From contig JBDOQK010000070.1 in NCBI GenBank assembly GCA_040437565.1, forward strand, positions 62,001 through 126,000: a stretch of DNA of 64,000 nucleotides. Direction: 5' to 3'. Made by a program: the position numbers and the translations under genes. Shown here piece after piece: positions 2,138 through 64,000 of this stretch; position 1 is the first letter of the stretch, and every line of letters starts with the position of its first letter. Under the pieces are notes generated by a model. It ran no database searches, was not told the origin of the DNA, and saw only the letters and a list, made by a program, of their open reading frames with translations. The DNA is from Albugo candida. Lineage: Eukaryota.

Positions 2138-2264
2138 TCCATCGGCCGATTTCCATTTCGAACACGAAAGGACACACTCTTAAGTACGGATACGACTAAG
2201 TTTGGTTGGCAAAGTATTATATTATCCTAGTTTAACGTATGTCCACATAATGATCCACAAAGCG

Positions 2265-3557
2265 CTAAAAAGTGTTTTTTGTTGCGCGTAAAAGCGATTG
2301 AACCTTTTCCAGAGCGAATTCAGGCTTGATAGGCTTTCGTTCTATCGATACATCGTCTTTCATACTCGTCATAACCGATTCGAGAGCCTATACATGCACA
2401 CTGAAGCCGCGTTTGTGAAAAGACTTGCATGCGACGTACCTGAACGCATTGCTTCCATCCAGGTTGTCTTTCATCGCCGATACCCTCTCCTTGTCGGACC
2501 CACGCACAAAACCAGCGATGATCTCGGCAATGGGTCAGGAATCGATCGCTATTAGTGCACGAGCGCTTGGCCTCTCTCTGTGGCTCAACCGCCTTCATCA
2601 TCCGCTGTAAGGGATCGCTTATGTCATCAGACTTGACATTTTTGTCCAATAATTGACGACGATTGCAATAGGAGCACCAGAGATAAGAAATACCTCCACG
2701 TTGGTGAGAATCGTCTGCTACCCGTTGAAGCTTCCAGCCATGCAGAACCAGTAGAAACGCTTTCGTCTGGATCGAGGTGTTGTCGGGAACTGGAGACTTG
2801 GTGTCCGGGTTTTGCTTTTCGATAGAGAGCACCCACTGCGATACGGTGGACCACACTGTATCGGTAAAGTCCCATTGGTTTGGAGCAAGAAACCATTCCA
2901 ACCACTTGTTCGATTCGTTTTGATCAGATATAAATTGCATAACTGTTGTTGATATTTCAAACACATCAGTTACGAGTTGTCGTACTCGTTCTGTGGCAGT
3001 GAGCACAGGAAGCTAATGCGAAAGAAAGCTTCAACGTCGCCAGTGATTATATAAACTGATTCTACTGACCATAGTGAACGCGGATGGAGACGGATTATCT
3101 CGCCATGGACAATGCTGATGATGTCCGTTTATCAGCAACTTTGCAAATTGCGCTGCAACACGGTGGATTCCTTCTTGTGTGAGTGTGGTATCAATAGAAA
3201 AACAAAGTGTTGCGTGACAACTGCACACAAAACGCGTTATAAAATGGTACGATTGGGACACGATTGGTCGTACCAGCTGCAAGTTAAGATATCAGTTATA
3301 GAATTAACCCAACCGTGACGAGCCGCCTGGTACACATCGATTGGTGGAGGCTTGGCACACCACGTTGCGATCGAAAATGTAGCAACGCGTTCGAGAAAAA
3401 AGTTGTGATTCAACGGATCGCATCGAAGGGATGTCGATGAGGTATCGGTAGATGAGTTTCGTGCCGTCAATGCGATTTCCACAGAGCATGTGGCGCTTTT
3501 CCATTCGGACAATGTATTCCGATACATTTCGTCCATATTGAGATCTTTACAGTGCAT
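2265..3557 (-). CDS. NIPA/Rsm1-like C3HC zinc-finger protein (multi-exon)
   Basis: CDPLNHNFFLERVATF..W.AKP...AARHGW....L.C and HHQHCPWRDNPSP (C3HC finger) plus LHGW, CSYCNRR and HRWFCAWV (Rsm1-like second finger), spread over ORFs 3237-3563, 3031-3282 and 2320-3006 and joined by short GT-AG introns. Boundaries are approximate. Confidence 0.8.
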
Positions 3558-3944
3558 ATCCAACTATGTCCGAATCTTATCATATCGAAGTTATAGTTAA
3601 GTATAATCAAGGTCTATTATAGCATTATCAAAGCCCCTTTCATGGAAGCCGATGAGCTCCTTCCTTCTCAGCCAGCAGGATTGCCTCTTTGACGGTCTGT
3701 TACCAAATGATACCCAGAGACCTCCACCCTCATCCTACTACCTCTCCTCATCCATCAAACGCTTTCATCTGCTCACAAATGAGCCCAACATTATAAAAAG
3801 GCCCAGGCTCCTCGTATCAAACCTACTCCAATTCCCAAGCCCATCTAAGAAGCCTCCACCCGCCCGACCCCACCCCACCTATATCCTCACCTCCCCACCT
3901 ATATCCTCACCTCCCACACCATTCTCCACGTCCCATTTCCCTCT

Positions 3945-6900
3945 CTATTCCTTTGTAAACCGCTCACAAAAAACCTTTGCATTCTGAAACATTCGCATCC
4001 ACGGACTCGTTGAATGTTGCTTGAATGTATTCGGTTGCCACGGCCATTGGAACTTTTCAAAAGATCTTTCGGGGTGCGGCATCATGCACAAATGACGTCC
4101 ATCTGCGGACATTAGCGACGCAATTCCATTCTCCGACCCATTGGGATTGAAAGGGTAGCGTTCCGTGATGCTATTCACATCATCTACATACCTCACTGGC
4201 GCTAAATCTCTCTCCAAAATGACTTTAGACACCTCAGGCTCCAGCCTGACCCGCCCTTCCCCGTGAGACACCCAAACACCAAAATGACTGCCAGCCATCC
4301 CCTCCAGCAATACGGCTTTCGACGGGAGGATCCCAATCGACACAAATCTCGACTCGTGGCGTCCTGAAGCGTTCTCTACGAACCGAGGTCGTTCGAGGCT
4401 TTTTTCCCCGGGGACATCGACCCAACCCAAAAGCGCCATCAGCTGACATCCATTACACACACCTAAACTGAAGGTATCCTCACGCTGTCGAAATGCTTCA
4501 AATTGCAGCAGTAAAGTCGCATCAAAGTGAATGGATGCCGCCCATCCTTTCCCGGAGCCCAAGACATCCGCAAAGGCGAATCCGCCCACAAATGCGACAC
4601 CAGAGAACCGATTATCCAAAGAGATACGACCTGCAACAAGATCCGACATGGTCACATCCCACACCTGAAAGCCTGCGTGATAGAATGCAGCATGCATTTC
4701 ACGCTCGCCATTGCTTCCTTCCTCTCTGATAATTGCAATGTGATGCAAATGACGCGTTTGTAAATGCCTTTCCAACGTGTTCGAAGGTGTGAATGAGAGA
4801 TTCCATTGAGGGATTTCACGTGACGACAGTGAGAGCTCTTCCGCGTCGACGCATTCCTTACGACACTGTCGACGTTCCAATGCAAAACTCGTGGCTTCCC
4901 ATACTTTCCAAAGCGCAATCATATCGTCTTCCAAAACACTTGTGCCATTCACTGCGACGCGAATACGCTTTTGAGGTGTCACACGACCGATTTCAAGGAA
5001 TGGAACATCGAGCGATTGGAAAATCTCTTTGAATGCGACAATATCGCTATCGGCGACCTGATACACCAATCCAATTTCCTCCGCGAAAAGAGCCTCGAGA
5101 ATCGATTTATTACAAGCAGGAATATCGACGTGGAAGCCACAATGACCGCTAAACGCCATTTCCAATAGTGTCACCAATAAGCCTCCATCACTACGATCAT
5201 GACCCGCGAGGATCAACTGTTGATGCACCGCTATTTGTGTCGCTCGGAATGCCCGAATGAAGAGCTGAGGATCGTCGATCGTTGGACATGTATCTCCGAG
5301 GTAATTGTACACTGTTGTGAGCGCGGATCCACCGATACGATACGCTCCTTGGCCGATATCCACATACAAAATGGAACTCGAGACGTCAGAGACGAAATTC
5401 GGTGTCACTGCGATTTCGACATTATCACACGCCGCATACATTGTGATAACAAGCGTTCCGGGAGCTTGGACGTGGTCATTTTCGACTTGTACGGCCATCG
5501 ATAACGAGTCTTTCCCGCCGTCAATTGCAACACCAATTTCTTTCATAAATGACGTCATCGAAACACAACAATCGACCATTTCGGCAGCTTGGCCGGGAAG
5601 CTTCGCAGCCCACATCCAATTCGCAGAGCATTTACAATCATGGAGATCACCCGATAAGGAAGCCCAAACGAGATTCGTAAGCGCTTCCCCGACCGTCTGA
5701 CGAGCCATTGCTTTGGGATCCAAAAGCCCTTTAATCGGTTGTTCACCGATCGATGTCGCTACACCGGAGAGAATTCCATTGGGAGAACGATATGAAGTCG
5801 CGACAATCGCACAATTCGAAAGACTCAATTGCATGGGACCGATTGTCTGTTGTTGCGCCACGAGACCTCCGACACTTCGATCGACTTTGGTGGTGAGAAA
5901 TCGTTTCGAGCCAACGGATACGAGTCGAAGGACACGATCGAGTGCTTCCTGAACGGGAACATCAAGTGGAAATGTATCGATATATCGTGGAAAATGATGA
6001 TCTCGAAAGGTTTTTCGAGGCATTTCTCCAAGCACAAGCGCTAAATCGAGATCCACAGCAACTTGATCGTTCTGTGAATCGAACAGCACCACGCGTCCAT
6101 CGCCAGTGACAGTCCCAAGAAATGCAAATGGACATCGTTCACGTCGACAAATTCGCTCCAATACATTTCGATCCGCCTCACGAATGAGAATCGCATTGTT
6201 TTCTTGATATTCAGCGCCCCAAATCTCTAAAACCGAAAGCGAAGTATCACCGACGAGGATCTTTCGGACATCATACCGAGCTCCACCGCCATTTGCATCG
6301 TACACAATCTCTTTGAGAACATTCCCATTCCCTCCAGCGCCTTGGTCGTGTATCGATACAATTGGATTCGTATCGCCCATTTCGATACACGCGCGAATCA
6401 CTTTATTCATTTTCGACTCCATTTCCGCATCGCCGCGTTGAACGGCATTGAAATCGATTTGAGCGGTTGATGGATCGGATACGCGACTGGAAGCTGCACC
6501 TCCACCCATTCCAATGCGATACGCTGGTCCTCCAAGCTTGACGACCCACATATCGACCTGAGGTGCGAGTTTCTCGCAATGACGCGCGTCGATGGATCCA
6601 ATTCCCGCGGAAAACATTATCGGCTTTACATATTCTCTTCGATTCTCATCGAGTTGCATGCCAAAACTTCGTGCGAAACCCGCGATCACAGGCTCACCAA
6701 ATTTATTCCCGTAATCGGAGGCGCCATTGGATGCTTGAAGAAGGATTTCCAGCGGTGTCGCGAGGTTCGACGGGTACACAGCGTCAGTATTTTCCCATGG
6801 AAGAACGTATTCGTCCATCAACAGATTACCGACTGCATACCCAGCAACTCCAGCAATCACGTGAGCGCCTCGACCGGTAGCTTGTACGTCTCGAATACGA

Positions 6901-7949
6901 CCTCCCGTGCCGGTTTCTGCGCCTGGAAATGGAGCTACCGCACACGGAAAGTTGTGTGTTTCGGCTGTGAGGAGAAGATGCATTTCAGTGGTGCTTTCGA
7001 TAAGGACAGAGCACGTGGTGGGATCGGAAGCTGTAAGATGAGTGATCGGATATGGAGCGCCACGTATGACGGAAGAATTGTCGTGGAATGCAACGATACT
7101 GTTTTCGAAAGCGCGTGGCGTAAGTGTCGATTTTACCATTTGGAAAAGTGTCTGTGGAAGCGTTTCTCCATCGATGATGAGCTCTCCACTGAAGAACCAA
7201 TGTCGCGAATGCTCGGAATTGCTTTGCGCCATATCGAAACACTCGACAGTCGTGGGATTTCGTTTCATTTTGTCTTTGAAAAGTGTGTAATAGAAATGAA
7301 GATCCCATTCATCAAAGCCCAAATGAAGCAATTCATTCACTTTGGCAAGCGCTTGTGGTCCTTGTTCCATGATGGGAACTTCTGTGACCGGAGGAATGGC
7401 AGTTTGTGGCGGTGTGAGGCGATTCAATTGCGTGGAAAACATTTGTTGGGTCATTCGATCACATTCACGCGATAAGAGTGCAGCGGTTGTAAGGGATTTT
7501 GTCGTCAAAGTAAATGGAGATTTACAGTGGATGAGGTACCGAATGGAGCGTTCGAGACGCGTGATGAGATTGAGACCACAGGCGTGACAGATGGACACGG
7601 CATTCGACGACCATGCGGTTGTGAAACTGAGGCGAGGTCCGATTTCTATGAGATGGGAATTTGGAGTGAGATGAGAGCCGATGAACGAAGCGGAATCGCG
7701 TGTTTGAGAGCGTTCGAATGTCTCACTGAGAAGCCAATGAACCACTTGGGATTGGGACGCCGTTAGTGAATCGATGGATGGTGCCAATTCGATGTAAAAA
7801 CAGAATTCCGTGTCGAGGCCCACGATCTGAATATTGTTTTTAATGAGATTTTCGTCATTTTGGAGTGATGTTAACAGCTTTTCAGACTGATACGATGAAA
7901 GAGCGGGTGTTCGAAAGTATGTGACGAGTTTCCCGCTTTCGATTGTCAT
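3945..7949 (-). CDS. PFAS: Phosphoribosylformylglycinamidine synthase (large PurL type)
   Basis: QSNSEHSRHWFF, ETHNFP, GAETGTGGRIRD, IHDQGAGG, GGKDSLSM, HDRSDGGL, glutaminase GVCNGCQ and MMPHPER. Probable start is MTIESGK at 7949. Intronless. Confidence 0.97.
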   Translation of the reverse strand: MTIESGKLVTYFRTPALSSYQSEKLLTSLQNDENLIKNNIQIVGLDTEFCFYIELAPSIDSLTASQSQVVHWLLSETFERSQTRDSASFIGSHLTPNSHLIEIGPRLSFTTAWSSNAVSICHACGLNLITRLERSIRYLIHCKSPFTLTTKSLTTAALLSRECDRMTQQMFSTQLNRLTPPQTAIPPVTEVPIMEQGPQALAKVNELLHLGFDEWDLHFYYTLFKDKMKRNPTTVECFDMAQSNSEHSRHWFFSGELIIDGETLPQTLFQMVKSTLTPRAFENSIVAFHDNSSVIRGAPYPITHLTASDPTTCSVLIESTTEMHLLLTAETHNFPCAVAPFPGAETGTGGRIRDVQATGRGAHVIAGVAGYAVGNLLMDEYVLPWENTDAVYPSNLATPLEILLQASNGASDYGNKFGEPVIAGFARSFGMQLDENRREYVKPIMFSAGIGSIDARHCEKLAPQVDMWVVKLGGPAYRIGMGGGAASSRVSDPSTAQIDFNAVQRGDAEMESKMNKVIRACIEMGDTNPIVSIHDQGAGGNGNVLKEIVYDANGGGARYDVRKILVGDTSLSVLEIWGAEYQENNAILIREADRNVLERICRRERCPFAFLGTVTGDGRVVLFDSQNDQVAVDLDLALVLGEMPRKTFRDHHFPRYIDTFPLDVPVQEALDRVLRLVSVGSKRFLTTKVDRSVGGLVAQQQTIGPMQLSLSNCAIVATSYRSPNGILSGVATSIGEQPIKGLLDPKAMARQTVGEALTNLVWASLSGDLHDCKCSANWMWAAKLPGQAAEMVDCCVSMTSFMKEIGVAIDGGKDSLSMAVQVENDHVQAPGTLVITMYAACDNVEIAVTPNFVSDVSSSILYVDIGQGAYRIGGSALTTVYNYLGDTCPTIDDPQLFIRAFRATQIAVHQQLILAGHDRSDGGLLVTLLEMAFSGHCGFHVDIPACNKSILEALFAEEIGLVYQVADSDIVAFKEIFQSLDVPFLEIGRVTPQKRIRVAVNGTSVLEDDMIALWKVWEATSFALERRQCRKECVDAEELSLSSREIPQWNLSFTPSNTLERHLQTRHLHHIAIIREEGSNGEREMHAAFYHAGFQVWDVTMSDLVAGRISLDNRFSGVAFVGGFAFADVLGSGKGWAASIHFDATLLLQFEAFRQREDTFSLGVCNGCQLMALLGWVDVPGEKSLERPRFVENASGRHESRFVSIGILPSKAVLLEGMAGSHFGVWVSHGEGRVRLEPEVSKVILERDLAPVRYVDDVNSITERYPFNPNGSENGIASLMSADGRHLCMMPHPERSFEKFQWPWQPNTFKQHSTSPWMRMFQNAKVFCERFTKE

Positions 7950-8120
7950 TGTGTGCTTGGAATTACGACACGAAATGAATGAGCTTTTGACGTCGGAATT
8001 TGAGGTTTTGTGGCCAACCAACTGAGCGTTGTTGATTGGTTGATATTGCGCATTTATGTACCAATGAGGGATGAGAATCAGTGAAATTAATAACCAATCC
8101 GATTCGTTGGAACGGACGAA

Positions 8121-9155
8121 ATGCAAGCCCAATGGAAGCGTAACGCATTCCGAAATGCGTCGCGTTCTATCGTTAGAACGCGTGCGTTTTGGCGCCCAGC
8201 GACGCCTTTATGTACGAAATGGTCAATCAAAATGTCGATTAGGGATGTAATACTTCCTATAAAAGTACGTGGCTCTCTGTATATCGTTTTCAATTTGCAA
8301 AGTGTTGTGTTTGTAGCGATTGCCTGTGCCATTGCTCACCACAATTGCATATAGTGCGTTTTACACAAATACCGCTGCGAGTGAGACCATACGGCCATTG
8401 TCTTCGATTCGATTGTACCAATTCGCGCCGTGTCCGTACTGTTGCAAAGTGCGGGCCATTTTGGATTATTATAAGGTACCGTATGAGATTGTGGAGGTAA
8501 ATCCTGTCACGAAAAAGGAACTTAAGGATATAACAACGTACCGTAAAGTCCCAGTGTGCCAGATTGAAGGTGACATTGTGACTGGCTCTAGTGTCATTGT
8601 GAATCAGATCGCGTCACGTGTACGTTCACAAACTGGGACGATTGATGGAACGGAGACAGAATGGTGTCACTGGGTCGATACTATACTGGTACGTACCATT
8701 TGACTCCCATGCGATCAAACTCATTGTGACAACAACCTCAGATCCCGCTTCTTCCACTCAATATATATCGCTCTTTCTCTGAAGCGTGTGATGCGTTTGA
8801 ATATTGTCTCACCGAAGGCAACTTTACACCTCTTGAACGACAAGTATCAAAGTATTTCGGTGCGATTGTCATGTACGGCGTAAGCAAACGCAAGAAAAAA
8901 ACAAAAGGGATCCAAGAAGAAAGGCAAGCGTTGTATGATGCCGTGAATGAATGGATCCGAGCTTTAGACGATCATGCATTTCTTGGCGGTGATACTCCCA
9001 ATCTGGCTGACCTTTCAGTCTTTGGTGTGCTTCGATCCATCCAATCATTAGCCACCTTTGAAGACTTGAAGCGTAACACATCCATTGTTCCATGGTACGA
9101 TCGCATGCGGGACGTGGTTGGGTCATCGGCGGGACGACCCGCCGTCAGCACATAA
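8121..9155 (+). CDS. PTGES2: Prostaglandin E synthase 2-like (glutaredoxin/GST-fold) protein
   Basis: LYQFAPCPYCCKVRAILDY..VEVNPV..YRKVP, then NIYRSFSEA..AFEY and FLGGDTPNLADLSVFGVLRSI. Introns at about 8265-8316 and 8689-8740. The N-terminus looks like a mitochondrial targeting peptide. Confidence 0.9.
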
Positions 9156-52847: not shown

Positions 52848-54841
52848 CAATTGCTGAAAATGCTTCTCAACTATAAGTAATCATCAGTTTGCTGAGGTGC
52901 AACACAAATGAGACGTAACAGTTGGTTCAGGGCGATAACATAAAAATAAATAATGGGTTACAAGATTAGTTTGATTGTTTTCGAGAACAAAAAGTGGTTA
53001 GTTGTGGCATAATGCTTAGAGCTGAGAGTTTGGGTAGCTCGAGAGCTAAGGCCTCCAAACTTATTGTACTGATAATAGCCTCCGCTCGGATACATCATAG
53101 CAAAGTCCGCTGCAAGCCAAACCATGGAGGGGATTCAGCCGTCGGGAACGAATGTCAGACGCTAAAAAATGACCATGATATTGATGATATCTTGCATTCA
53201 CTCTTGCTTTCTTGGTTTGATCATTGCTTGTTCAAGGCTCTGAAAAATACATGCATCGACATAGCTGTCTTGTTGCCTTACATTTAGATAATGAAATGAT
53301 TCAGACGTAAATTGTGTGCTTTCTCTTCTCCATAAACATTGACAAGATCACTGATGAATGCACCACGCGTTAAGTAAGAAAATCATGCAAGAGATTTTAT
53401 CAAAGCGCGTTGAATGCGGCGCACCCAACAAGTCATCACACCGCCGGGTTATATTCGAATCGGGGGTGAAGTATAGAGCATTATGAGCCGTACATAAATA
53501 AAGTGATGACGTGGTTGGTACCAGAGATCCTTTTTCAACATCTAAAGCTAATTGTCGAAACAGTAACGCTCAAGCAATCTCCCTTTTCAATCCCAGAAGA
53601 TAACAAATGCATAGATAAAAGTAACGAAGCCCGAGTTTAAAAAATCTCAACAATCTTTATCTCTGTCAAGCAGAAGAAACTCTAACCAGCGATGAAAACG
53701 ATGATATAAAGTTGCCTAAAGTATGAGCGTCCAAATGATCTTCAACATCTCGTGTCCAATGGTTCCTAGCTTTCTCAGCAAATTTTGAGCAGGATTGTAT
53801 GGTAGATTGTCAACCAATTGCGCATGGTGAATCCATGCAGCAATTGCAAGGGCTCAGTTGAATGTGTCTATATTACGAAAATTATCTTTAAAAAAAGATA
53901 TACAATCAATTGCGAAACGACTCAACTCAGATACAAATTGGGTGTTATCAGTAATTGGTCTTGCATCGTTAGCTCTGCAGGAAGCAACTCCGTGACCCGA
54001 GTGATGAAAGTCGGCGCTGTAAATTCACAAATTGAAATTATCGATCACCTCTTTCGAATATTTTCAATGACACTGAGCGCAAAGTGGAGTCAATGTCGCA
54101 NNNNNNNNNNNNNNNNNNNNNNNNNNNNNNNNNNNNNNNNNNNNNNNNNNNNNNNNNNNNNNNNNNNNNNNNNNNNNNNNNNNNNNNNNNNNNNNNNNNN
54201 TGCGAAACGACTCAACTCAGATACAAATTGGGTGTTATCAGTAATTGGTCTTGCATCGTTAGCTCTGCAGGAAGCAACTCCGTGACCCGAGTGATGAAAG
54301 TCGGCGCTGTAAATTCACAAATTGAAATTATCGATCACCTCTTTCGAATATTTTCAATGACACTGAGCGCAAAGTGGAGTCAATGTCGCATGTGAAATCA
54401 AACAATGCTTACTTTCTGATCAACTCCAATTGTTTCTTAGTAGTACGACACAGCAGCTGATCAAGGTCCAGGTAGATATTCACCAAGCCGCCTATATCCT
54501 TGACGTATCCTGCATAAAGACTGATAAAAAATAGACCGAACTAAATTATCGCAAACACCTTTGATCGTTCAAAGTAGAGCCACTTTTTTTAGGATTGTTT
54601 GCTATAGTTTTACAAACAAGCTTGTTTAGTCTCTTTCTCCTTCGTACAATTCCGATCAGACAATACAGTGTGATCGGGGAGTCACAGTCTGCAGAAGGTA
54701 AAGTATTCCGATTTTCGGTGATCTTTTTTTTTTTTGAGAGAGTTAGATGGCGGTGTGGTGTAGTTGCCAGCCGTCTTGACACGTCAGAAGCTTTACATAA
54801 GTTGGATGGTATTCACGAGGAGGATATTTTCTCCGACGAGG

Positions 54842-54990: not shown

Positions 54991-56252
54991 AATTATGAGC
55001 CCAACCAAGATTCCACCAGCCAAGACCATGGAAGAATCCGACGGATCAGATGAGTCGAAGATGGACCGAATGATGATGCTGCTGGATACACTCGGAAATC
55101 GACTGGACAAGATAGAAACCGAGCGGAGCGTCGGTTTGCCCGTACCAGCACCACCCGCGCGAGCGGAGAGCTTATTTGCTGGGTCGCGAAACCAAGGACA
55201 GGGTTTGACAATGTCATCCCTGGATGCAAAACCAATGCAGCATCGTGGAAGCGGGATGAGGAGAAGCTTTGTCTATGCCATGCAACATAATGCGCTGGAC
55301 GGGCTAAACCGAGTGAGATTCCCAGCAANNNNNNNNNNNNNNNNNNNNNNNNNNNNNNNNNNNNNNNNNNNNNNNNNNNNNNNNNNNNNNNNNNNNNNNN
55401 NNNNNNNNNNNNNNNNNNNNNNNNNNNNAATGGATGAAGCGCATCCGGTTCTCACGCCTATCGGTCAGGACTACAGTGATAGTACAACATCAAACTCGGA
55501 CTGCTTGGGGATAAGTTCAGTCAAGAAGCCAACTATCAAGAAGTTACAGTCTTTGGCGGGCAGCCTTTTGTGGATTGCGCGCTGCACGCGTCCAGACATA
55601 AGTTTTGCTGTGCATAAGCTGACGAGACGTACTCATGCACCAACAAAAGCCGATTGGGCGTTAGGTGTCAGAGTGGTGAAGTATCTTCAGGGTACAAAAA
55701 GTCTGAAGCTCTATTTGGGTGGTGAAGTATGCACGAATTCCAGAGAAGTCACTCTGGAAGCTTTTTCGGATGCTGATTACGCACCAGATGATGTAACGAG
55801 AAAGAGCATATCTGGTACAGCATTCACTTTGAATGGAATGACGATCAGCTGGTCATGCAAGAAGCAGCACTCAGTAGCATTATCGACGATAGAAGCAGAG
55901 TTTGTAGCAGCATCGAAGGCATCGCAGGAATTATTCAGCGAGTTAATAGCCAAAGTGAAGGAGCCAATGATCTAGTGGATGGATAACCAGACGGCTATCA
56001 GTCAATTTTTCAACGAAGCTACTTCAATCAAGGCAAAACATATCGACGTCCGACTAAAATTCGTCAGAGCTAACGTGGTCAGAAAAATAATCGCACCTAG
56101 GTACGTACATACGTCGAAGATGATGGCCGACTTGCAGACGAAGGCGTTTTCGACGCCAAGATTTCTTCAGCTAAGGGAGTTATGGCAGTTAAGGGATCGG
56201 ACAATGCAAGTTAAAGGTGACACAACTTCAAGTGCAACCGGAAAGGAAGGAG

Positions 56253-56401: not shown

Positions 56402-57383
56402 CGCGGGGCCCCATCAGTCCTGTCGGGCTTATCTTAGACGGTAGAGCATCGGTCTGAGCCCACGGAAGCAGAAGCTTGGTTGATATCTGCTTCCCTAGGT
56501 TCGAAGCAAGACTTGAGTGAAATTCACACGGTGAAGGGCTAATGGTACGATAAGTAAGGTAGCTAAAGAATCAGACAGAGAGTGTAGTGAAATTCTGCAA
56601 TAACTTGTTCAGATTTTGGTCACGGGCATAGACTTGCACGAAAATGCTGGTCACGATCTATGCTAGTATACAAATTGAAGTGTGTCTCAGACCCATGAAA
56701 ATGCCTTGCGAGTCGAAGTTGCGATATTGGCGATACCTGGCTTCAGGGTTTCACCATGCGATTGCGCAATAATGGTCGCTGATGCGAGCAAGAGTTCTGG
56801 ACAATAGCAATCAAAGGGCTTACAAAGTACACCCACGTAAACGAGTATCCATGATGGCAGTCGACACGACAGGGTTGATATAACAGCCGTAAATTTGCGT
56901 GGAAACCTTTGAAAGAATTATTACTTTTTTTCGTTGTTGGTGCAATACAAAAAAATTGTAAGCTAATAAGCTTTTTATGCACGACCCAGTTGCATCATCC
57001 ACGATTAGCGTGCTGCTACAGAAACCATCCTTACGTAGAAAAATTGCCGGACAATCTGTTAGAGTATACATAGAACTGATACGAAGCATACAATATTTTG
57101 AAAGATGTAATTATCTAGGTGAGCCAAGCCCGTAGGGGATCGTCACACTAGTTGAGCAACACTATAATTGTTCACGACGATACTAAGAGTTTATAGGATT
57201 AAGGTTACGAAATGAGCAACGAGTCCGTTTCAACTTTTACATGCAACCATTACCGTTAATAATGAAGCGATCATTCTAATGGGAATAAAAGAGATAATGG
57301 AATGCTAAAACTCGTAACTGCAAACATCAGTTACGGAAATAAATACCACACGAACCGGTGGAAATAGAGCAACGCACTGACTT

Positions 57384-59474
57384 ATGAGTGACAAAAAAAG
57401 CAGCGAGTATTCCCGACTTTCTCATTCGATAAACGAGCCAAAACTGTCTCCGCGCTTATCAAATTCTCCAAGTGAACGTCTTGTTATACAAACGACTTCT
57501 ATCGTAGCTTTGAAGTGCGCTGTCCAGAAAAATATTCATTCTTTTTGGTCTCAGCTTTGGAAGGACACAGCTGGAAAGGGATATCATCGATTGAAAAAAG
57601 CACAAAAAGACATTGTAAAGCCCTCATACCGCTTGGAATGGAGAAATGTCGGCACTGAGTGCTGGTCCAACGTGAACTTTTATCGAAATAACTGGAAATG
57701 CCTCCAACAAGAAATTCTGTGTGGAATTGCTGCGACACTCTTACAAATTCCGGAAACCATAGCATTCAGTTATGTGGCCAACTTGGATCCGCTTATTGGC
57801 TTGCACGCGACGGGAATCCTTGCCATTGTCATAGCTGTGCTTGGGGGTGTTCCTGGAACAATTGCTGGTGCAGCTGGAGCTCTCGCGGTCGTGATGCCTC
57901 AACTTACTGGAAGTTCAGGCGATCTGAGTGAGTATTCGTACTCGGTTCGCGTTTCTCATTTGTACGTGGCTGTTCTACTGGCTGGAATCATGCAATTCTT
58001 CTTTGGCGTGTTCCATTTGTCCAAGTTTTTTTCGATGATTCCAAGAACAGCCCATATTGGTTTTCTAAATGGTTTGGCAATAATGATGCTCAAATCTCAA
58101 TCGACTACTATCAAAAGATGCAAAAATATCTCTGCAAGCGATGCGAAACGGCTCTTTGCAGAATGTGAAGTAGCTGGTGAGTTGGAATGGATGCACATCA
58201 CTGATTTACACCTGATCACGACGCTATTTACGGTTCTGGCGACCATGTGTATCATGCATTTTTTCCCCAAAATACCAAGAATCGGTTCTCTGGTTCCGCC
58301 AACGCTTGTTGTTGCGATTTTTGGAATAGGTTTTGAATTTGGAATCAATCGTCCGCTGTTCAAGTATGACGTCCGAACAATTGGGGATACCTCTTCAATC
58401 TCCGGTGGCTTTCCTTCCTACCATACCCCACAGCTACACGCGATTCATAACTGGTCTGCAGTGATCTCTTGCGCCGCCAGTCTTGCTGCGATTGGAATTT
58501 TTGAATCGATCATGACACTTCAAGCAATCGTCGATCTTCGAAAATCCCGACTTACCTTGCAGGCTTGTCGTAAAGAATCCATCGCTCAAGGTATTGGAAA
58601 TATTCTTTGCGGCTTTTTCCACGGAATGGGTGGGTGTTCCATGATCGCACAATCAACCGGAAACATTATAAATGGAGCTCAGTACCGATTGTCCGGCTTT
58701 ATGTGTGGTATTACAACCTTCATAATTGTGTGTTTTGCCAGTCCGATCATGGAATTAGTGCCTGTAGCTTGTCTTTCGGGCATTCTATTCGTCATTATTG
58801 CGCATACATTTCACTGGAAATCATTGATTTTGATATTTCACATTCGGCTTTGCGATGGATTTACGATCGTTCTTGTGACTCTTCTCGCCGCCACACTCAA
58901 TTTGGCTGTAGCTGTAATCGCTGGCGTCATTTGGCATTCTCTTGTGAACGGATGGGACTCAGGAAAACAGCTTTCCTGTCGAGAGGAAGACGTTCCTCTG
59001 GATCAATTTCTGAGTCAGATTTCACAAGATGCAGGTGTTGGAGACAATTTGGCGCAAGGAATCAAGGAATCGCTACCGGCGTTGATCAAGGTGTATCGCT
59101 TGCAAGGCACACTACTTTATTCCTCGGTAATGCGCTTTCGAGGCTTCTTTCACTCGATCTATCAAGATCCAGCGCTTGTGGTTCTGGACATTTCGCATTG
59201 TCATCTCTCTGATTTCTCAGCTACTGCAGCGCTACAGGAAGTGGCAACTCTTTACTATGATCAGCACAAACTTATGTTACTCGTTCATTTTGCTGACATG
59301 GAATCCTTCGACCTCGTGGTTAATAAGGATATCGGTTGGAATGTCCTGCGGACGCATTCAGATATAGTAGAGGCGATACAAATCTATGTCCATCAAGGTC
59401 AAGACGAATATCTAGAAATGAAAAGTCCGCACGCAGGAAGCGAATCTTTCCTTTTGACCGAAAACGCAAAATAG
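57384..59474 (+). CDS. SulP/SLC26 anion transporter with STAS domain
   Basis: LLQIPETIAFSYVANLDPLIGL, GGVPGTIAGAAGA, GFLNGLAI, ESIAQGIGN..GMGGCSMIAQS, and C-terminal STAS (YRLQGTLLYSS..VVLDISH..DFSA..AL). Confidence 0.93.
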   Translation: MSDKKSSEYSRLSHSINEPKLSPRLSNSPSERLVIQTTSIVALKCAVQKNIHSFWSQLWKDTAGKGYHRLKKAQKDIVKPSYRLEWRNVGTECWSNVNFYRNNWKCLQQEILCGIAATLLQIPETIAFSYVANLDPLIGLHATGILAIVIAVLGGVPGTIAGAAGALAVVMPQLTGSSGDLSEYSYSVRVSHLYVAVLLAGIMQFFFGVFHLSKFFSMIPRTAHIGFLNGLAIMMLKSQSTTIKRCKNISASDAKRLFAECEVAGELEWMHITDLHLITTLFTVLATMCIMHFFPKIPRIGSLVPPTLVVAIFGIGFEFGINRPLFKYDVRTIGDTSSISGGFPSYHTPQLHAIHNWSAVISCAASLAAIGIFESIMTLQAIVDLRKSRLTLQACRKESIAQGIGNILCGFFHGMGGCSMIAQSTGNIINGAQYRLSGFMCGITTFIIVCFASPIMELVPVACLSGILFVIIAHTFHWKSLILIFHIRLCDGFTIVLVTLLAATLNLAVAVIAGVIWHSLVNGWDSGKQLSCREEDVPLDQFLSQISQDAGVGDNLAQGIKESLPALIKVYRLQGTLLYSSVMRFRGFFHSIYQDPALVVLDISHCHLSDFSATAALQEVATLYYDQHKLMLLVHFADMESFDLVVNKDIGWNVLRTHSDIVEAIQIYVHQGQDEYLEMKSPHAGSESFLLTENAK

Positions 59475-59671
59475 TCGCCCGCTCGGTCGACCACTTTCGA
59501 TTGGCTGAGACAAATGCTTTAATGTCCACTCAAAATATATCTGTGCGTTTATGTCTGACACGCAATTTGCGGTCATCAAGGTAGCCATTTCGTAACGTAT
59601 ATCTTCATCCTTTATTTGTGGCTCAAATTTGGACTTTCCTATCTCCCATCGATCCCCCCTTTCACGCGCCA

Positions 59672-61333
59672 ATGACTGTAACAGACTCGTTCAACACCTT
59701 TGTTTCTCAAACAACGCAAGAGCCTCAACATCTCAATGGAGAAATACTCTTGCGTGGTTTCTTGTATAAACGACCAGAGCAAAATTCACTTCTTTGGAAG
59801 AAACGTTATTGTGTGATCATAAAAAACTCCCTTCAGATCGTTTATTACGAAAACGAAGAGGATTTTGAAAAAGGAAACATTCGTGGTAAAATCCCTTTTG
59901 CCTCAGTGCATAAATGGGATGGAAAACCGAACGGATTTCAATTTTATACTCCTACCAACCAGTGTTATCGCGTGTACACAGATACACCTAAAGAACACGA
60001 AGATTGGGTGTCGATCATGCAAACTCAAATCGATGCGGCGCCAGAGAAGGAAGATGTGGCTTCTATGACGTACGCACGTCCAATCGCGTCGTCACCGACC
60101 TATTCAACAGGGAAAGGTTGTGGACTTACTCGAACAGCTTCCTGGCAAGAGGAGGAGGCCGATATGTCAGCAATGGTGCAGGAGTTAGAGGATCTTCGAT
60201 CAGAGGTTACTACACTTCGTGCCGAATTGGCTTCTTATGAGAAGACTCAGCAGCGGTATAAAATGAAAAGTTTTGCGGGGACCCGACGGGGGAGTATATT
60301 GGAGGATGGTACGGCGGTCAATATTGAACCGCTTGAGATGGAACGGATGCGTGCAATTTTCAATCTTTTCGATACGCAAGGACATGGATACATAAGCGCG
60401 ACTGATTTGATCGATCTCCATTCAAAATTGGGCGAGCCGATTTCGAAAGAAGATGCTGCTGAAGCTATAGCACACATGCAAAAGAACGACGGTCAGATCA
60501 ATTTTGACTCATTCATCAAGTGGTGGAACGAAGATCATTCTGCTCCGAATCAAACGGAAGCAATGAAGAGGTATCAAGCAAAGTTCAAGTTCATCAAAGC
60601 TCGTATTGCAAACCCGGCAATCGGTAATATTGAGACAGTTGCTGTTGGACCTTTTCCGTCTTTCGAGTTCCGTCTGAATTTCTATTACAATGGACCGAAT
60701 GGATCACGTGTACAAATCTCTCCTTGGCACGATATTCCATTATACAATGCGGATGGATCTGTCAACTTTATTTGTGAGATTCCCAAATGGACACGAAAAA
60801 AGATGGAGATCGCCACCGGAGAACCATTCAATCCGATCAAGCAAGATACAAAGAACGGAAAGCTTCGCGAGTATACTTGGGGAGAAATGATGTTCAACTA
60901 CGGTGCATTACCTCAGACATGGGAAGATCCTTCTCACGTTACCGATGGAACGGGCTGCCCAGGTGACAATGATCCTATTGATGTTGTAGAGATCGGGACC
61001 AAGCAATGGCGCACTGGTTCAGTCGTTCAAGTAAAAATTCTTGGGGTTTTGGCGCTTATTGACAGCAACGAAACAGATTGGAAAGTGATTTGTATCAATG
61101 TGGAGGATCACTACGCGTCTAAATTGCACGATGTCTCGGATATTGAGGCTCACATGCCAGGCTGTATCATGGCTATTCACGACTGGTTACGTGATTACAA
61201 GCTTCCGTCGGTCAACAAATACGGCTACGAAGGAAAGTGTATGGGAAGAGATTTTGCTGAATGCGTGGTTGCTGAAACTCATGAATTCTGGAAGCATTTA
61301 ATCGAAGCTCGTGGAGGGCAAGCCACTGTATAA
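59672..61333 (+). CDS. PH domain + EF-hand pair + family I soluble inorganic pyrophosphatase fusion
   Basis: PH (RGFLYKRP..WKKRYCVI..EDWVSIM), coiled coil, EF hands (FDTQGHGYISATDL; KNDGQINFDSF) and PPase (SPWHDIPL, EIPKWTRKKMEI, NPIKQD, NYGALPQTWEDP, GDNDPIDV, ETDWK). Single ORF with no gap. Confidence 0.92.
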   Translation: MTVTDSFNTFVSQTTQEPQHLNGEILLRGFLYKRPEQNSLLWKKRYCVIIKNSLQIVYYENEEDFEKGNIRGKIPFASVHKWDGKPNGFQFYTPTNQCYRVYTDTPKEHEDWVSIMQTQIDAAPEKEDVASMTYARPIASSPTYSTGKGCGLTRTASWQEEEADMSAMVQELEDLRSEVTTLRAELASYEKTQQRYKMKSFAGTRRGSILEDGTAVNIEPLEMERMRAIFNLFDTQGHGYISATDLIDLHSKLGEPISKEDAAEAIAHMQKNDGQINFDSFIKWWNEDHSAPNQTEAMKRYQAKFKFIKARIANPAIGNIETVAVGPFPSFEFRLNFYYNGPNGSRVQISPWHDIPLYNADGSVNFICEIPKWTRKKMEIATGEPFNPIKQDTKNGKLREYTWGEMMFNYGALPQTWEDPSHVTDGTGCPGDNDPIDVVEIGTKQWRTGSVVQVKILGVLALIDSNETDWKVICINVEDHYASKLHDVSDIEAHMPGCIMAIHDWLRDYKLPSVNKYGYEGKCMGRDFAECVVAETHEFWKHLIEARGGQATV

Positions 61334-62239
61334 TTTGATACCACAGCTGTCTTGAGAAAAAATCTATGTTTCTACCACTTTGCGTTGCATTTACCATACT
61401 GAGCATCATTTGAATCTGTTGCCACGACTCAAATTAAATTCTAAGCTTGAAGGTTTTGGCTGCTGTATATAGCCGCTAGTATCATTTTCAATGTTACATG
61501 AGCCTTGAAGAAGACAGCATGGTCGGGCTCAGTTAAGAAACCCGCTAGATGATTTATATATTAAAATGACTATGTTACTGCAAGAGAACACTAGAAGTCT
61601 ACGAGTTGAACTTCATCCTCGTTAGTATGACTTCTATCGGTAGTATCTAGGCTGCAAGACATCGGATCAAGCACAAAGAATTAGCAAGTACTTGTCACTT
61701 TCTTTTCGAGTAGAGGAGTCTCAAGTTCGCTATTCGGCACATGCGAAACGAAGAAAAACACCGTAGTCAGAGAAAGGTTGTAAAAGGTCCTCCAGCGTAA
61801 GACAGAAGATAAAATCGTAACCGACTATTTTGTCTGCAATGAACACGACAAGCGACTGTAGAATGCAGTGGTAAAATTGAACGCGTTGACTGGTTGTATG
61901 TAGCACATTTAAATTTAGATGAAGCTATCCTGTGCCATCTGACGTCGCCTAAAAAACCTGTAAGTTGGCTGACTATAATAATACATGTCACGCATTACTA
62001 AAATCGGCTCGGTGAGCTCGGAACGAAGGTTAATTACGTTTTTGTATCAACGTCAAGAGTGTTAAACCCTTACAGTCGTCACACGCATGTGAGCTTTTAA
62101 ATGTTTAATACCCATTTAGCTTCCGTCGTTCTGCTAAAAAGACGATTGTAGCCCACCTTCCTGCGCCAAAAGGATTATGTAATCAAGTTCAGTTTCGCAC
62201 ATGAATCAACGCAACAGACTTGGCTGAGTTCGAGTTGCG

Positions 62240-62452
62240 TCAAAACACCATTTGGTGTCTCTGAAAGCAATCTCGAATTGTCCGCAATGATAATCCAGTT
62301 GCGACAGTCGTGCCATTAATCCAAATGCCATGTTCTTCATGTTGACGAAGTAAATTTCCCAAAGGTTCGATCGTCATCAGAAAAAGTAATGCTGAGAGAG
62401 GATCACCTTGTTTCACTCCACGTTGTGGTGTAATGGACGGTGTGATATTTCC
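62240..62452 (-). mobile_element. Non-LTR (LINE) reverse transcriptase fragment
   Basis: RGVKQGDPLSALLFLMTIEPL..L...GI motif, truncated by a gap and frameshifted afterwards. Confidence 0.85.
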
Positions 62453-64000
62453 NNNNNNNNNNNNNNNNNNNNNNNNNNNNNNNNNNNNNNNNNNNNNNNN
62501 NNNNNNNNNNNNNNNNNNNNNNNNNNNNNNNNNNNNNNNNNNNNNNNNNNNNCAACGCCACTGCAATTTTGAGTTTGTTAGAGAAAAGCACAGTTGTGGT
62601 CAGTGACAAACATTTTGTGCTACATTTTTGAATGTAATGTAAACGGATATTATATTAGTTGGCTGTGATCGTGAAACTTGGTTTCTTGAAAGAAAACAGC
62701 GATAGGACGTGGTCGATAAATAGATTACCATATTGATGAATTCTATCAACATCCACCTTGAGTGGTGAGATTTGTTCCACGCTGATATCGTCAGGAGTCC
62801 TTGTGAATCCGAATGTGAATGGTCACGCTGAAATGAACCAGCAGTATATCTTGTTGCACCATCGTCAGGTCATAGATGTATAGTCGAAAAATCCTCCGGG
62901 TTTTACAGGTAGTGATCGAAAGCTCCTCAATATTATAGAAGAGTAGTTATGCCGCCAGCCTTCAAACCACTGTGACCAACAGTTTGCTCGCACCTCGGAG
63001 CGAAACAGTGAAATGTATACATTCGCTGGTATAATCGGCAGTAACGGGGGGGGAATCCAAATCACTGACGCATGGATGATATACTGAGCCAAATGATCGT
63101 CTGTGTATATAGTAGCTCCCGTAGTTCGGGTCAAATCAGCCAAGTCTGGTGGGGTGGTTCTCCACCATAAAATTAGTGTCTCAAAAGTCGTTTGGTAGAG
63201 ATCTTTTCACCCACGTGACGTATCCATCGAGTTCCAAATCCTACGTCTTCACCAATCGTGAACAGCAAATACCCGATATATCATCTAGTGCAGGGGTCAC
63301 TTCCTTCCATGCAGTCCGGTAGCATTCCAGTCATAGTTGTGGGATGTGCTTCGTCTGCTTCAATGCTTCTGTAGGGCCTGGTACAAAACTGAATAATTTT
63401 TCGCGCATGTGTTTCATATACGTCTGAAACTGGATCAGTTTCTCAGGGTGACGTTGTTAAAGCCAGTTTTCGGGGTCGACTTCCATAAGCTCACCAACTT
63501 CACTAGCCCTTGTCAGATGCTCAAGTTGAGTACCGAATTGTTTTCGTTCGTGCTGCATGATACAGTACGACGCACCTATGACGAGGCAGTAGTAGCAGCA
63601 AAGGAACCATCTGTACCGCCTGTGCCATTCTGGAGCATCACACACGCGGTGAGAAACTTTCCATGTCATCACAGATGTGATGGCTCATTCACAATCATGC
63701 ATTTAACCAATTCTGGTGAATTTTCAGGGATTCCACGTAATCACAACCGGCCGCTGACACCCTGAGTTGTGTCGGGATTTCGACTTGAACCATTGTTTTC
63801 GAGAGGAGAGAGTTGAAAAAAGTTGTTTCTGACTTGTATGTATTAAATTGGTGGGTTATGCAGTAGCCGGAAAATCGAGAGGTCGGGCCCTTATAGCTCA
63901 GTTGAACGTGACTATGATACTAGAATTAGGCTTCTCTAATGCCTAAGCTACAATACTATTCTAAAATACATGCAAGTTTGATATATAAAAATCTACACCT

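Follow-up and report, generated by a model that had tools for sequence, protein, structure and literature searches.

A VSP1-like family I pyrophosphatase with an N-terminal PH domain and a degenerate EF-hand pair, conserved in oomycetes

The window analyzed here is a 64-kb stretch of Albugo candida DNA. Positions 59672..61333 of its plus strand hold a complete, intronless coding sequence of 553 amino acids plus stop, identified by an ORF scan, by full-length collinear orthologues and by tblastn. The frame opens with the first ATG downstream of a stop codon and is stop-free over 1659 nt, so that its description as uninterrupted in the first-pass annotation was correct for all 553 codons. In a six-frame scan of 58500-62500 it is one of only three ORFs of at least 80 residues, and no minus-strand ORF of that size lies beneath it. 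The protein, which we call PH-PPase, is encoded only once in the window according to tblastn.

Overlapping high-depth contigs of sequencing run X1 form a chain that outlines a transcript-like unit at 59646..61677 (plus strand), the run being RNA-like by guess. One contig covers 59646-60392 at depth 1198 and another 60434-61677 at depth 939, with short bubble contigs at 60363-60463 between the two. Upstream of the gene a contig of depth 66 ends at 59571, and no contig of this run extends past ~61881. Since runs X1, X5 and X6 were labeled RNA by guess, and runs X1-X18 are only presumed RNA, we regard this layout as a weak hint of a single transcript, not as proof. A DNA-like run, X19, covers 56500-62237 with a single flat contig of depth 15.7. 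The contigs of the four runs compared contain no skipped segment inside 59646-61677, and the frame is therefore gap-free in the DNA as well, as had been proposed. A tandem repeat finder returned 0 rows for the high-copy stretch downstream. The upstream neighbor of the gene is a sulfate permease; this neighbor is absent at the one distant PH-PPase locus examined, where a kinase-like ORF is found instead.

From N- to C-terminus, and throughout on the plus strand, the protein consists of a PH domain (residues 25-122, 59744..60037; PF00169, predicted structure, Foldseek and phmmer), a disordered Ser/Pro-rich linker (residues 127-162, 60050..60157; pLDDT <50) whose length and sequence vary between orthologues, a coiled-coil helix (residues 165-195, 60164..60256), a conserved motif G-T-R-R-G-S-I-L-E-D-G-T (residues 203-214, 60278..60313), an EF-hand pair (residues 220-290, 60329..60541; EF-hand_7, four model helices and alignment to the EF-hands of the trypanosomatid pyrophosphatase VSP1), a conserved connecting helix seen in the predicted structure (residues 296-312, RYQAKFKFIKARIANP, 60557..60607) and a family I pyrophosphatase (PPase) domain (residues 320-547, 60629..61312; PF00719, structural superposition and 13 catalytic positions). 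Pfam and the predicted structure thus bear out the four-part architecture of PH domain, coiled coil, EF pair and PPase put forward in the first-pass annotation. For the placement of the domains relative to each other, the full-length predicted structure is unreliable (pTM 0.58; rmsd 14-20 Å to full VSP1 chains).

The segments between the globular domains are conserved to different degrees. We compared 82 sequences, made up of 22 PH-bearing proteins (18 from oomycetes and 4 distant ones) and 60 PH-less relatives. The coiled coil, which had been called short, is confirmed as such by a predicted helix of 3.5 heptads with hydrophobic residues at 168, 172, 175, 179, 182, 186 and 189 (spacing 4-3-4-3-4-3) and by conservation at its a and d positions: V179, L182 and L186 are invariant in the 17 aligned orthologues and L175 is at least 90% conserved. 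A complex prediction with two copies of residues 160-320 (score 0.11, mark 0.32) has no bearing on self-association either way. The motif that follows matches an R-R-x-S consensus of the basophilic-kinase type and reads R-R-G-S in 16, R-R-G-T in one and R-H/K/Q-G-S in five of the 22 PH-bearing proteins; in 17 sequences G207 is invariant and S208 at least 90% conserved, which makes S208 a candidate, and only a candidate, phosphorylation site. In the connecting helix, R300, Y301, K304, F305, K306, F307, K309 and A310 are invariant in 17/17 orthologues, and Y301 and F305 in all 82 relatives.

The PPase domain is the best-preserved part of the protein. PF00719 matches residues 367-541 over profile positions 2-153 of 153, with 131.3 bits (cut-off 23.5; E 3.3e-38). 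The two catalytic motifs that had been reported as intact, GDNDPID (residues 431-437) and ETDWK (residues 467-471), are indeed so, and all 13 catalytic residues are present. Eleven of these (E369, K377, E379, R399, Y410, D432, D434, D437, D464, D469, K471) are invariant in 82/82 sequences, and Y509 and K510 are kept in 81/82. We take the yeast equivalents to be E48, K56, E58, R78, Y93, D115, D117, D120, D147, D152, K154, Y192 and K193; the PDB titles of fold matches name yeast-type variants at E48, R78, Y93, D115, D117, D120 and D152. The predicted domain (residues 320-547; pLDDT mostly 89-97, with one 10-residue block at 75) superimposes on the catalytic domain of T. cruzi VSP1 (5cux) with an rmsd of 1.4 Å over 241 columns and on the yeast and human enzymes with 1.5-2.4 Å, the range becoming 1.4-2.4 Å with VSP1 and the Toxoplasma enzyme included. 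Judged by its intact active site, the protein is predicted to be a soluble family I PPase that depends on Mg2+ and is competent in catalysis. To our knowledge, family I PPases consist of a single domain in nearly every case. Yeast IPP1 and human PPA1 (1wgi, 1e6a, 6c45) share the fold of the PH-PPase and all 13 of its active-site residues, identically spaced, and phmmer matches to cytosolic family I PPases have E-values of 1e-55 to 8e-62. Yet these two enzymes are single-domain proteins of ~285 residues, whereas the window protein has ~320 additional N-terminal residues and, between the R399 and Y410 equivalents, a loop that is four residues shorter.

Among solved structures, the top four relatives by sequence and the top nine chains by fold (Foldseek) are all VSP1. 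The match to 5cuu_A (E 2.9e-73) aligns residues 222-544 to chain residues 76-406 and thereby spans EF pair and PPase in one collinear stretch, which upholds the earlier suggestion of kinship with VSP1. By alignment and fold, the EF+PPase core is clearly homologous to this trypanosomatid acidocalcisomal PPase. VSP1 is associated with acidocalcisomes, is active on polyphosphate (polyP) and forms tetramers through its EF-hands. Its structures (5c5v, 5cuu, 5cuv, 5cuy) have the EF-hand pair fused N-terminally to a eukaryotic family I PPase, and in the two VSP1 sequences aligned here the EF loops are non-canonical too, position 12 of EF1 being Lys. In contrast to the window protein, VSP1 has no PH domain, coiled coil or R-R-G-S motif, and its own N-terminal extension is unrelated. 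An excerpt of PMC5507929 describes VSP as hydrolysing PPi or polyP according to the metal present, Mg2+ or Zn2+, and VSP1 as a protein that has been explored as a drug target.

The EF-hand pair is recognizable mainly as a fold. EF-hand_7 (PF13499) matches residues 224-284 (E 5.3e-7), at 30.3 bits barely over its cut-off of 30; of the single-hand profiles, EF-hand_6 scores just above its cut-off (25.4 against 25) and EF-hand_1 (22.5 against 25.4) and EF-hand_8 (21.8 against 28) score below. The predicted structure nevertheless has four helices at residues 220-290. PS00018 describes the canonical loop as 12 residues long, with Gly at position 6 and oxygen ligands at 1, 3, 5 and 12; neither loop of the window protein matches it. 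The EF1 loop (residues 234-245, 60371-60406), D-T-Q-G-H-G-Y-I-S-A-T-D, carries Gln3, His5 and Asp12 and departs from the pattern at 3 and 5, although metal coordination by Gln, His and Asp side chains is conceivable in principle. The EF2 loop (residues 269-280, 60476-60511) has 11 residues, Gln and Ser occupying positions 1 and 12, and in 22/22 PH-bearing proteins it is one residue short and lacks both the position-1 and the position-12 acid. Only four of these 22 proteins fit PS00018 anywhere, namely in EF1 of the four Saprolegniales sequences. Among the PH-less relatives, 26/60 have at least one canonical loop and 34/60 have no match, PS00018 being a strict pattern that many of them miss as well. 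From the 26 relatives with a canonical loop we infer that the ancestral EF module probably bound Ca2+. Given the degeneration of both loops, canonical Ca2+ sensing by the EF pair of the window protein is unlikely, and the enzyme's proposed regulation by Ca2+ finds no support here.

The PH domain is well defined. PF00169 matches residues 27-119 with 40.6 bits (cut-off 25.1; E 3.9e-10), and the models (pLDDT ~90-98; 91 for the PH domain alone) show seven strands and a C-terminal helix. Foldseek found 239 PDB matches at E ≤0.001, and all among the matches listed are PH domains; the best are Akt, PLEKHA7, PLEKHA5 and PEPP (TM 0.73-0.78), and phmmer detected the second PH domain of Myosin-X (1.4e-7) and PLEKHA5 (1.5e-6). 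The fold is the same as in PLEKHA5, Myosin-X PH2, Akt/PKB, PLEKHA7, PEPP1 and GRP1, but sequence identity to these is only 19-26%, and the PH domain is here joined to a metabolic hydrolase, where in Akt, GRP1, Myosin-X and others it is joined to a kinase, GEF, motor or adaptor. Most of the fold neighbors were solved with inositol phosphates bound, such as Ins(1,3,4,5)P4 in Akt, GRP1 and ARAP3, and InsP5 in the C-terminal PH domain of pleckstrin.

Phosphoinositide-binding PH domains characteristically carry a K-Xn-(K/R)-X-R signature where β1 ends and β2 begins, although most PH domains do not bind lipids tightly. The window protein has this signature in K33...K43-K44-R45 (strands 25-33 and 43-50), sharing with PLEKHA5 and Myosin-X PH2 both the β1 lysine and a β2 that starts with WKKR[W/Y]. 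Across the 22 PH-bearing proteins, K33 is Lys in 16, position 43 is Lys in 18 and Arg in two, and R45 is kept in 20; the full K...K/R-x-R signature is retained in 16/22, including the window protein. The β1 lysine is replaced by Asn in the four Saprolegniales proteins and by Ile in two distant ones, and K-x-R is degraded in the four distant proteins (WRSSY, WRTSY, WASRF, WQVRF). The residues that are invariant in 22/22, W42, W82, G84, K85 and G88, together with K73 (21/22), all lie outside the signature, and for this reason the role of the domain that is conserved throughout the clade may differ from canonical phosphoinositide binding. Targeting to membranes or inositol phosphates is plausible, since the window protein keeps K...K-x-R and its nearest PH relatives bind inositol phosphates. 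The earlier view of a phosphoinositide-binding PH domain draws support from the signature of this protein and from the ligands of its relatives, but the signature is not uniform across the clade.

Orthologues of 541-561 residues align with the window protein end to end (query coverage 95-100%). PF00169 and PF00719 occur together in 23/120 proteins among the matches listed, including 10 named oomycete species from 7 genera. PH-bearing orthologues come from Albugo, Pythium, Globisporangium, Phytophthora, Hyaloperonospora, Achlya, Thraustotheca and Aphanomyces, and from a sister lineage; A. candida and A. laibachii fall into one 90% cluster, and the distant form is a single ORF at two metagenome loci. 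By these alignments, the PH-bearing form is a conserved oomycete orthologue, with the same layout in all oomycetes sampled, and outside oomycetes the PH architecture appears to be confined to one sister lineage. The rarity implied by the first-pass annotation was therefore mistaken: this is the standard oomycete orthologue, already deposited and annotated generically, with "inorganic diphosphatase" as its only database name. Among the best 120 of 4479 matches to shorter proteins, most of which carry no species name, we found no plain single-domain PPase from a named oomycete.

In a quick IQ-TREE phylogeny of the EF+PPase region only, the 18 oomycete proteins, the four distant PH-bearing proteins and P0028 form one clade (SH-aLRT 98). 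P0028 (also P0134) is a truncated gene model that begins with the last strand and the helix of the PH domain. The PH clade nests within algal and protist EF-hand PPases, such as those of Emiliania huxleyi and Symbiodinium ('PPA6'), which share the EF+PPase core but differ in having no PH domain, and none of the 60 PH-less relatives has residues that align to the PH core. On this tree, the EF+PPase core is older than the PH addition. Our literature search found no description of a PH-bearing PPase, in keeping with the earlier remark that no characterized enzyme is known to carry one; the combination may be included among the 273 novel multidomain proteins of oomycetes listed in the supplement of PMC2705460, or in the domain-centric analysis by Seidl et al. 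(2011). The PH-PPase gene is real and intact and, though conserved across oomycetes, has apparently never been studied.

The window protein has neither a signal peptide nor a TM segment (maximum Kyte-Doolittle mean over 19 residues, 1.13). It is therefore expected to face the cytosol and not a lumen, with any membrane contact on the cytosolic face, and its proposed placement at acidocalcisome-like vacuoles is not supported as written.

The reading we favor, with somewhat better than even confidence, is that of a conserved oomycete VSP1-like EF-hand PPase whose PH domain and short coiled coil were gained once, in the ancestor of oomycetes and their sister lineage, and which is cytosolic, targeted by its PH domain and no longer uses its EF pair for sensing. 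The enzyme would be cytosolic or cytosol-facing and would hydrolyse PPi, perhaps also short-chain polyP as VSP1 does. Its PH domain would either enrich it at membranes that contain phosphoinositides, on their cytosolic side, or bind soluble inositol phosphates, and PPi removal might so be placed beside membrane-bound producers or consumers of PPi, for example glucan and cellulose synthesis or an H+-PPase; PPi demand at oomycete membranes is put forward as a hypothesis in an excerpt of PMC11210485. The EF pair, no longer a canonical Ca2+ sensor, would serve together with the coiled coil as a structural or oligomerization module, and the R-R-G-S site between the two could act as a phosphorylation switch.

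Several other readings draw on the same observations. That the enzyme is a plain housekeeping cytosolic PPase of oomycetes, its PH domain, coiled coil and EF-hands serving only protein contacts or oligomerization without lipid or second-messenger input, we consider unlikely, if worth keeping in mind. It would fit PH residues that are invariant in the clade but not classically lipid-binding, a K-x-R that decays in the distant lineage, and the depth of 939-1300 over the gene in run X1 against 66 for its neighbor, depth being a poor measure of expression. PPases are also more abundant in growing Saprolegnia mycelium, according to an excerpt of PMC5768655 that leaves their architecture unstated, and the lack of a named oomycete single-domain enzyme among the best 120 of 4479 matches, most of them nameless, adds a weak argument. 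Against this reading stand the full K...K/R-x-R in 16/22 proteins, the window protein included, the lipid or inositol-phosphate binders among the closest PH relatives, and the existence of another oomycete PPase domain, in an ATP sulfurylase-APS kinase-PPase fusion (PMC2705460, excerpt). Less probable still is the integration of phosphoinositide signals (PH) and Ca2+ signals (EF) for PPi or polyP turnover at acidocalcisome-like vacuoles, as first proposed. Both loops are non-canonical here, EF2 is degenerate in all 22 PH-bearing proteins, and a protein with no signal peptide or TM segment has no evident route into a vacuole lumen; these points weigh more with us than the reality of the three domains in Pfam, the deposition of the nearest characterized relatives as 'acidocalcisomal pyrophosphatase', the action of VSP on PPi or polyP by Mg2+/Zn2+ (PMC5507929, excerpt), or the canonical loops in EF1 of the Saprolegniales (4/22) and in 26/60 PH-less relatives.

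We give little credence to the PH domain being a sensor of soluble inositol poly- and pyrophosphates (InsP4-InsP7) that, with the R-R-G-S site, couples phosphate-status signaling to the hydrolysis of PPi and short-chain polyP. Compatible with it are the many nearest PH structures that contain soluble inositol phosphates and the clade-invariant residues, which differ from the lipid signature; if it is true, this lineage would govern phosphate metabolism through a PH domain much as fungi, plants and trypanosomes do through SPX domains. The fusion itself is almost certainly no artefact, be it chance read-through of a PH gene and an EF-PPase gene or an assembly chimera. Beyond the general possibility, only some split or truncated public models (P0019, P0021, P0022, P0027, P0028) could be cited for it, and the truncated ones still hold PH remnants. 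Against it we have the single stop-free frame of 1659 nt, the same collinear layout in 23/120 proteins among the matches listed, from independent genomes and transcript assemblies, and at the two metagenome loci, the X19 contig that spans the gene, and the X1 contigs that chain over the PH-PPase junction with uniform depth.

The favored reading, a PH-targeted cytosolic enzyme, has analogues in other multidomain proteins. PI-PLCs of the delta type have the same N-to-C order of PH tether, EF-hands and catalytic domain, a layout also described in some oomycete PI-PLCs (PMC9694693, excerpt), but the resemblance goes no further than analogy: the catalytic domains are unrelated and, according to our tree, the EF+PPase core of PH-PPases predates the gain of the PH domain. 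The oomycete ATP sulfurylase-APS kinase-PPase is likewise a lineage-typical fusion, in which the PPase sits beside a PPi-producing activity (PMC2705460, excerpt); it differs in its partners, which suggest substrate channelling as opposed to the targeting or regulatory domains seen here.

No cell can do without the removal of PPi, and a lineage-wide PPase with PH domain, coiled coil and decayed EF-hands would mean that in oomycetes the hydrolysis of PPi is spatially organized or placed under signaling control. The group includes major pathogens of plants and fish, and the apparent restriction of PH-PPase to oomycetes and a sister lineage, together with the interest in VSP1 as a drug target, makes it a candidate lineage-specific target. 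It also offers a tractable system for the grafting of regulatory domains onto a housekeeping enzyme. The EF-hands of PLC-delta have a mainly structural role. Across PH-PPases and their PH-less relatives, the EF-hands form a series consistent with the loss of Ca2+ sites after the arrival of a new regulatory domain: many algal relatives have canonical loops, the Saprolegniales proteins keep them by half, and those of Albugo, Pythium and Phytophthora have degenerate ones.

The six-frame ORF scan of positions 58500-62500 yielded just three ORFs of at least 80 aa, among them the 553-codon ORF at 59672..61333 (+), which starts at the first ATG past a stop and lies opposite a minus strand without any ORF of that length. 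These are exactly the coordinates of the first-pass annotation, and its description of an uninterrupted ORF joining a PH domain, a coiled coil, an EF-hand pair and a family I pyrophosphatase (PPase) with the GDNDPID (residues 431-437) and ETDWK (467-471) motifs was confirmed by the scan, by Pfam and by a structural model. Pfam assigned the pyrophosphatase domain (PF00719) to residues 367-541 (E 3.3e-38, 131 bits, cut-off 23.5), the PH domain (PF00169) to residues 27-119 (E 3.9e-10, 40.6 bits, cut-off 25.1) and the EF-hand pair (PF13499) to residues 224-284, the last barely over threshold (30.3 bits, cut-off 30). The AlphaFold2 model of the full-length protein (mean pLDDT 82, pTM 0.58), for which 82 sequences were aligned, comprises a PH sandwich with its helix (residues 25-122), a disordered linker (127-162), a single long helix (165-195), four EF helices (220-290), a connecting helix (296-312) and the PPase barrel (320-547). 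Since the long helix has a conserved core of hydrophobic residues at 168, 172, 175, 179, 182, 186 and 189 (spacing 4-3-4-3-4-3), "short coiled coil" is a fair label for it. The connecting helix carries one of the best-conserved non-catalytic segments, R-Y-Q-A-K-F-K-F-I-K-A-R (300-311). Between coiled coil and EF pair lies the motif R-R-G-S-[I/V]-L-[D/E]-D-G-T (203-214), which begins with R-R-G-S in 16 of the 22 PH-bearing rows of the alignment, with R-R-G-T in one and with R-H/K/Q-G-S in five; R-R-G-S matches the basophilic-kinase consensus, from which we infer possible phosphoregulation.

The protein aligns end to end with orthologues of 541-561 aa, and the contigs of no sequencing run skip a segment within the gene. 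In run X19, which is DNA-like, one contig of flat depth 15.7 spans 56500-62237. In run X1, an upstream contig of depth 66 ends at 59571, within the 197-nt intergenic gap, and a chain of contigs overlapping by ~30 nt covers 59646-61677 at depths of 939-1300, with none placed past about 61881. This pattern resembles an abundant unspliced mRNA spanning PH through PPase, a weak hint only, because the RNA label of X1 is a guess. X1 also contains a small assembly bubble at 60363-60463, whose major (depth 1110-1300) and minor (9.7-93) contigs differ by 1-2 letters and overlap the EF1-loop codons (60371-60406); a strain variant or minor allele is the probable cause.

The best relatives of the protein among solved structures belong to VSP1, the trypanosomatid pyrophosphatase called "acidocalcisomal" or vacuolar soluble, and a single alignment with VSP1 chain 5cuu_A (E 2.9e-73) extends over residues 222-544, spanning the EF and catalytic domains. 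In Foldseek searches with the model the top nine chains were all VSP1, the catalytic domain superimposing on 5cux at 1.4 Å. The rmsd to full-length VSP1 chains was 14-20 Å, so the EF/PPase arrangement in the model either differs from that of VSP1 or is not fixed by the model. All 13 catalytic positions are kept (E369, K377, E379, R399, Y410, D432, D434, D437, D464, D469, K471, Y509, K510), with a spacing equal to that in yeast PPase; seven of these residues are named in the titles of matched PDB entries. Across the 82 relatives, 11 of the positions are invariant and two are conserved in 81. All sequence and fold criteria applied place the protein in family I and in its VSP1-like EF-hand subfamily, which establishes its identity and homology, and because of the complete catalytic set and the kinship to VSP1 we take it to be an active enzyme.

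For the EF-hand pair, we used the strict PROSITE pattern PS00018 to detect canonical Ca2+ loops. It has at least one match in 26 of the 60 PH-less relatives, and the wider family includes textbook loops such as D-S-T-G-D-G-Y-I-N-A-T-E and D-S-S-R-S-G-A-V-N-F-E-D. In the PH clade, EF1 fits the pattern in four of 22 rows, all from Saprolegniales, and EF2 is one residue short, other residues standing in 22/22 in place of both the Asp of position 1 and the Glu/Asp of position 12; the distant PH-bearing group has long insertions in EF2. EF1 of the window protein and of the Albugo laibachii copy has the sequence D-T-Q-G-H-G-Y-I-S-A-[T/S]-D, in which positions 3, 5 and 12 are Gln, His and Asp; PS00018 has no match anywhere in the window protein. 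With no match here and a short EF2 lacking both acids throughout the clade, the Ca2+ regulation originally proposed fails and should be dropped. In view of the strictness of PS00018 and of the capacity of unusual ligands to bind metal, we go no further than to call Ca2+ binding itself unlikely. The loops of the two aligned VSP1 sequences are likewise degenerate, with Lys at EF1 position 12, and the VSP1 pair has been reported as a structural or oligomerisation module; we read the pair in the window protein in the same way.

A model of the PH domain only (pLDDT 91) had as nearest folds those of Akt/PKB, PLEKHA7, PLEKHA5, PEPP-3, PEPP1, SKAP55, GRP1 and ARAP3 (TM 0.73-0.78, E ~1e-6), many of them solved with inositol phosphates bound. 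The best sequence matches were Myosin-X (1.4e-7) and PLEKHA5 (1.5e-6), which have in common with the window protein a Lys ending β1 and W-K-K-R-[W/Y] opening β2. Lipid-binding PH domains have the signature K-Xn-(K/R)-X-R, and the window protein displays both their fold and this signature, as K33...K43-K44-R45 on model strands 25-33 and 43-50. Among the 22 PH-bearing rows, position 33 is Lys in 16, Asn in four Saprolegniales and Ile in two distant sequences. Twenty rows have K or R at position 43, and 20 have Arg at position 45. W42, W82, G84, K85 and G88 are invariant and K73 is kept in 21. Given the signature, the PH relatives and the good if incomplete conservation, binding of a lipid or inositol phosphate by the window protein is plausible, with a chance slightly better than even, and may not be the function common to the whole clade.

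The homologue search returned 6838 candidates, 1485 of them with E ≤0.001, and PF00169 and PF00719 occur together in 23 of the 120 matches listed. The species include Pythium oligandrum, P. insidiosum, Globisporangium splendens, [Pythium] brassicae, Hyaloperonospora arabidopsidis, Phytophthora cactorum, Achlya hypogyna, Thraustotheca clavata, Aphanomyces invadans and A. stellatus. A deposited NCBI protein is letter for letter the same as the window protein, whose 90% cluster also includes Albugo candida CCI11474.1 and A. laibachii CCA27157.1 ("inorganic pyrophosphatase putative"). A distant group (P0023-P0026; 615-641 aa, 44-46% identity) has the same order of PH, coiled coil, EF-like region and PPase, and two metagenome loci match this form over query residues 27-553, one of them (L001) as a single 618-aa ORF. 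That the fusion is an artefact, for example of one assembly, is very unlikely, because the identical layout recurs in many independent assemblies.

In a quick IQ-TREE search on the shared EF+PPase region, the 18 oomycete and four distant PH-bearing rows and P0028 fall into a single clade (SH-aLRT 98) that lies within the PH-less EF-PPases from algae and other protists. The sole apparently PH-less member, P0028/P0134, lacks both ends as a gene model, and the longer member of its cluster opens with the final strand and helix of a PH domain. The PH-bearing PPase is ancient within oomycetes, and the simplest history would be a single gain of PH domain and coiled coil in the common ancestor. Truncated or internally gapped orthologue models (P0019, P0021, P0022, P0027, P0028/P0134) come from Peronospora destructor, Phytophthora cactorum (without GDNDPID), a second Hyaloperonospora entry, Aphanomyces euteiches and one further contig, and look like annotation errors, not biology. 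Three further long PPase-containing proteins (P0084, P0042, P0032) may be additional PPase fusions or chimeric models: an EukProt transcript of 824 aa in which aspartyl-protease domains (PF14543, PF00026) accompany PF00719, one from Hydra vulgaris (640 aa) and one of 766 aa.

A hydropathy scan (Kyte-Doolittle, 19-residue windows; highest mean 1.13, hydrophilic N-terminus) indicated neither a signal peptide nor a membrane span. The suggested acidocalcisome role thus has no support as far as placement inside the lumen is concerned, and any membrane association would be peripheral, on the cytosolic face. Judged from sequence, the protein would be an active cytosolic Mg2+-PPase, possibly with the short-chain polyphosphatase activity described for VSP (PMC5507929). 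Its PH domain could gather the enzyme at phosphoinositide-bearing membranes or be responsive to inositol phosphates in solution. Quaternary structure could be determined, through oligomerisation, by the coiled coil and decayed EF pair, and the conserved Ser might serve as a switch. One rationale for PH targeting is offered by the hypothesis, printed in a 2024 review of microbial PPases, that oomycete wall synthesis yields membrane-proximal PPi (PMC11210485). The same review nowhere mentions EF-hands, VSP1 or PH domains. PH-bearing PPase sequences are already public with generic annotation; our literature search found no description of them, although the supplementary list of Morris et al. 2009 or Seidl et al. 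2011 may list the pair. The only PPase fusion described in the main text of Morris et al. is ATP sulfurylase-APS kinase-PPase (PMC2705460).

On the same strand, 197 nt upstream of the PPase gene, a 696-aa ORF (57384-59474, +) encodes a transporter of the sulfate permease family (PF00916, E 2.8e-41). The adjacency is suggestive, because sulfate activation yields PPi; in run X1, contig depth is 66 for the permease and about 940-1300 for the PPase gene, and at L001, the one distant locus checked, a kinase-like neighbor takes the place of the permease. On this GC-rich metagenome contig, two ORFs (93-2024, −, and 2052-3908, +) stand head to head with start codons 27 nt apart, the partner of the PH-PPase homologue being a 643-aa Ser/Thr-kinase-like protein (HRDLK and DFG by eye). 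Further upstream in the window, the ORFs at 54995-55975 (+, 326 aa) and 53824-54285 (+, 153 aa) matched no Pfam family at E ≤0.001. Downstream, at about 62116-62817, an AT-rich stretch (GC 0.31-0.37) contains no ORF of at least 60 aa, and many contigs break or end loose there. The tandem repeat finder returned no rows for it, ruling out a tandem array, and with a depth in run X19 of 2874-8673 against 13.7-15.7 on its flanks, it is a high-copy dispersed repeat.
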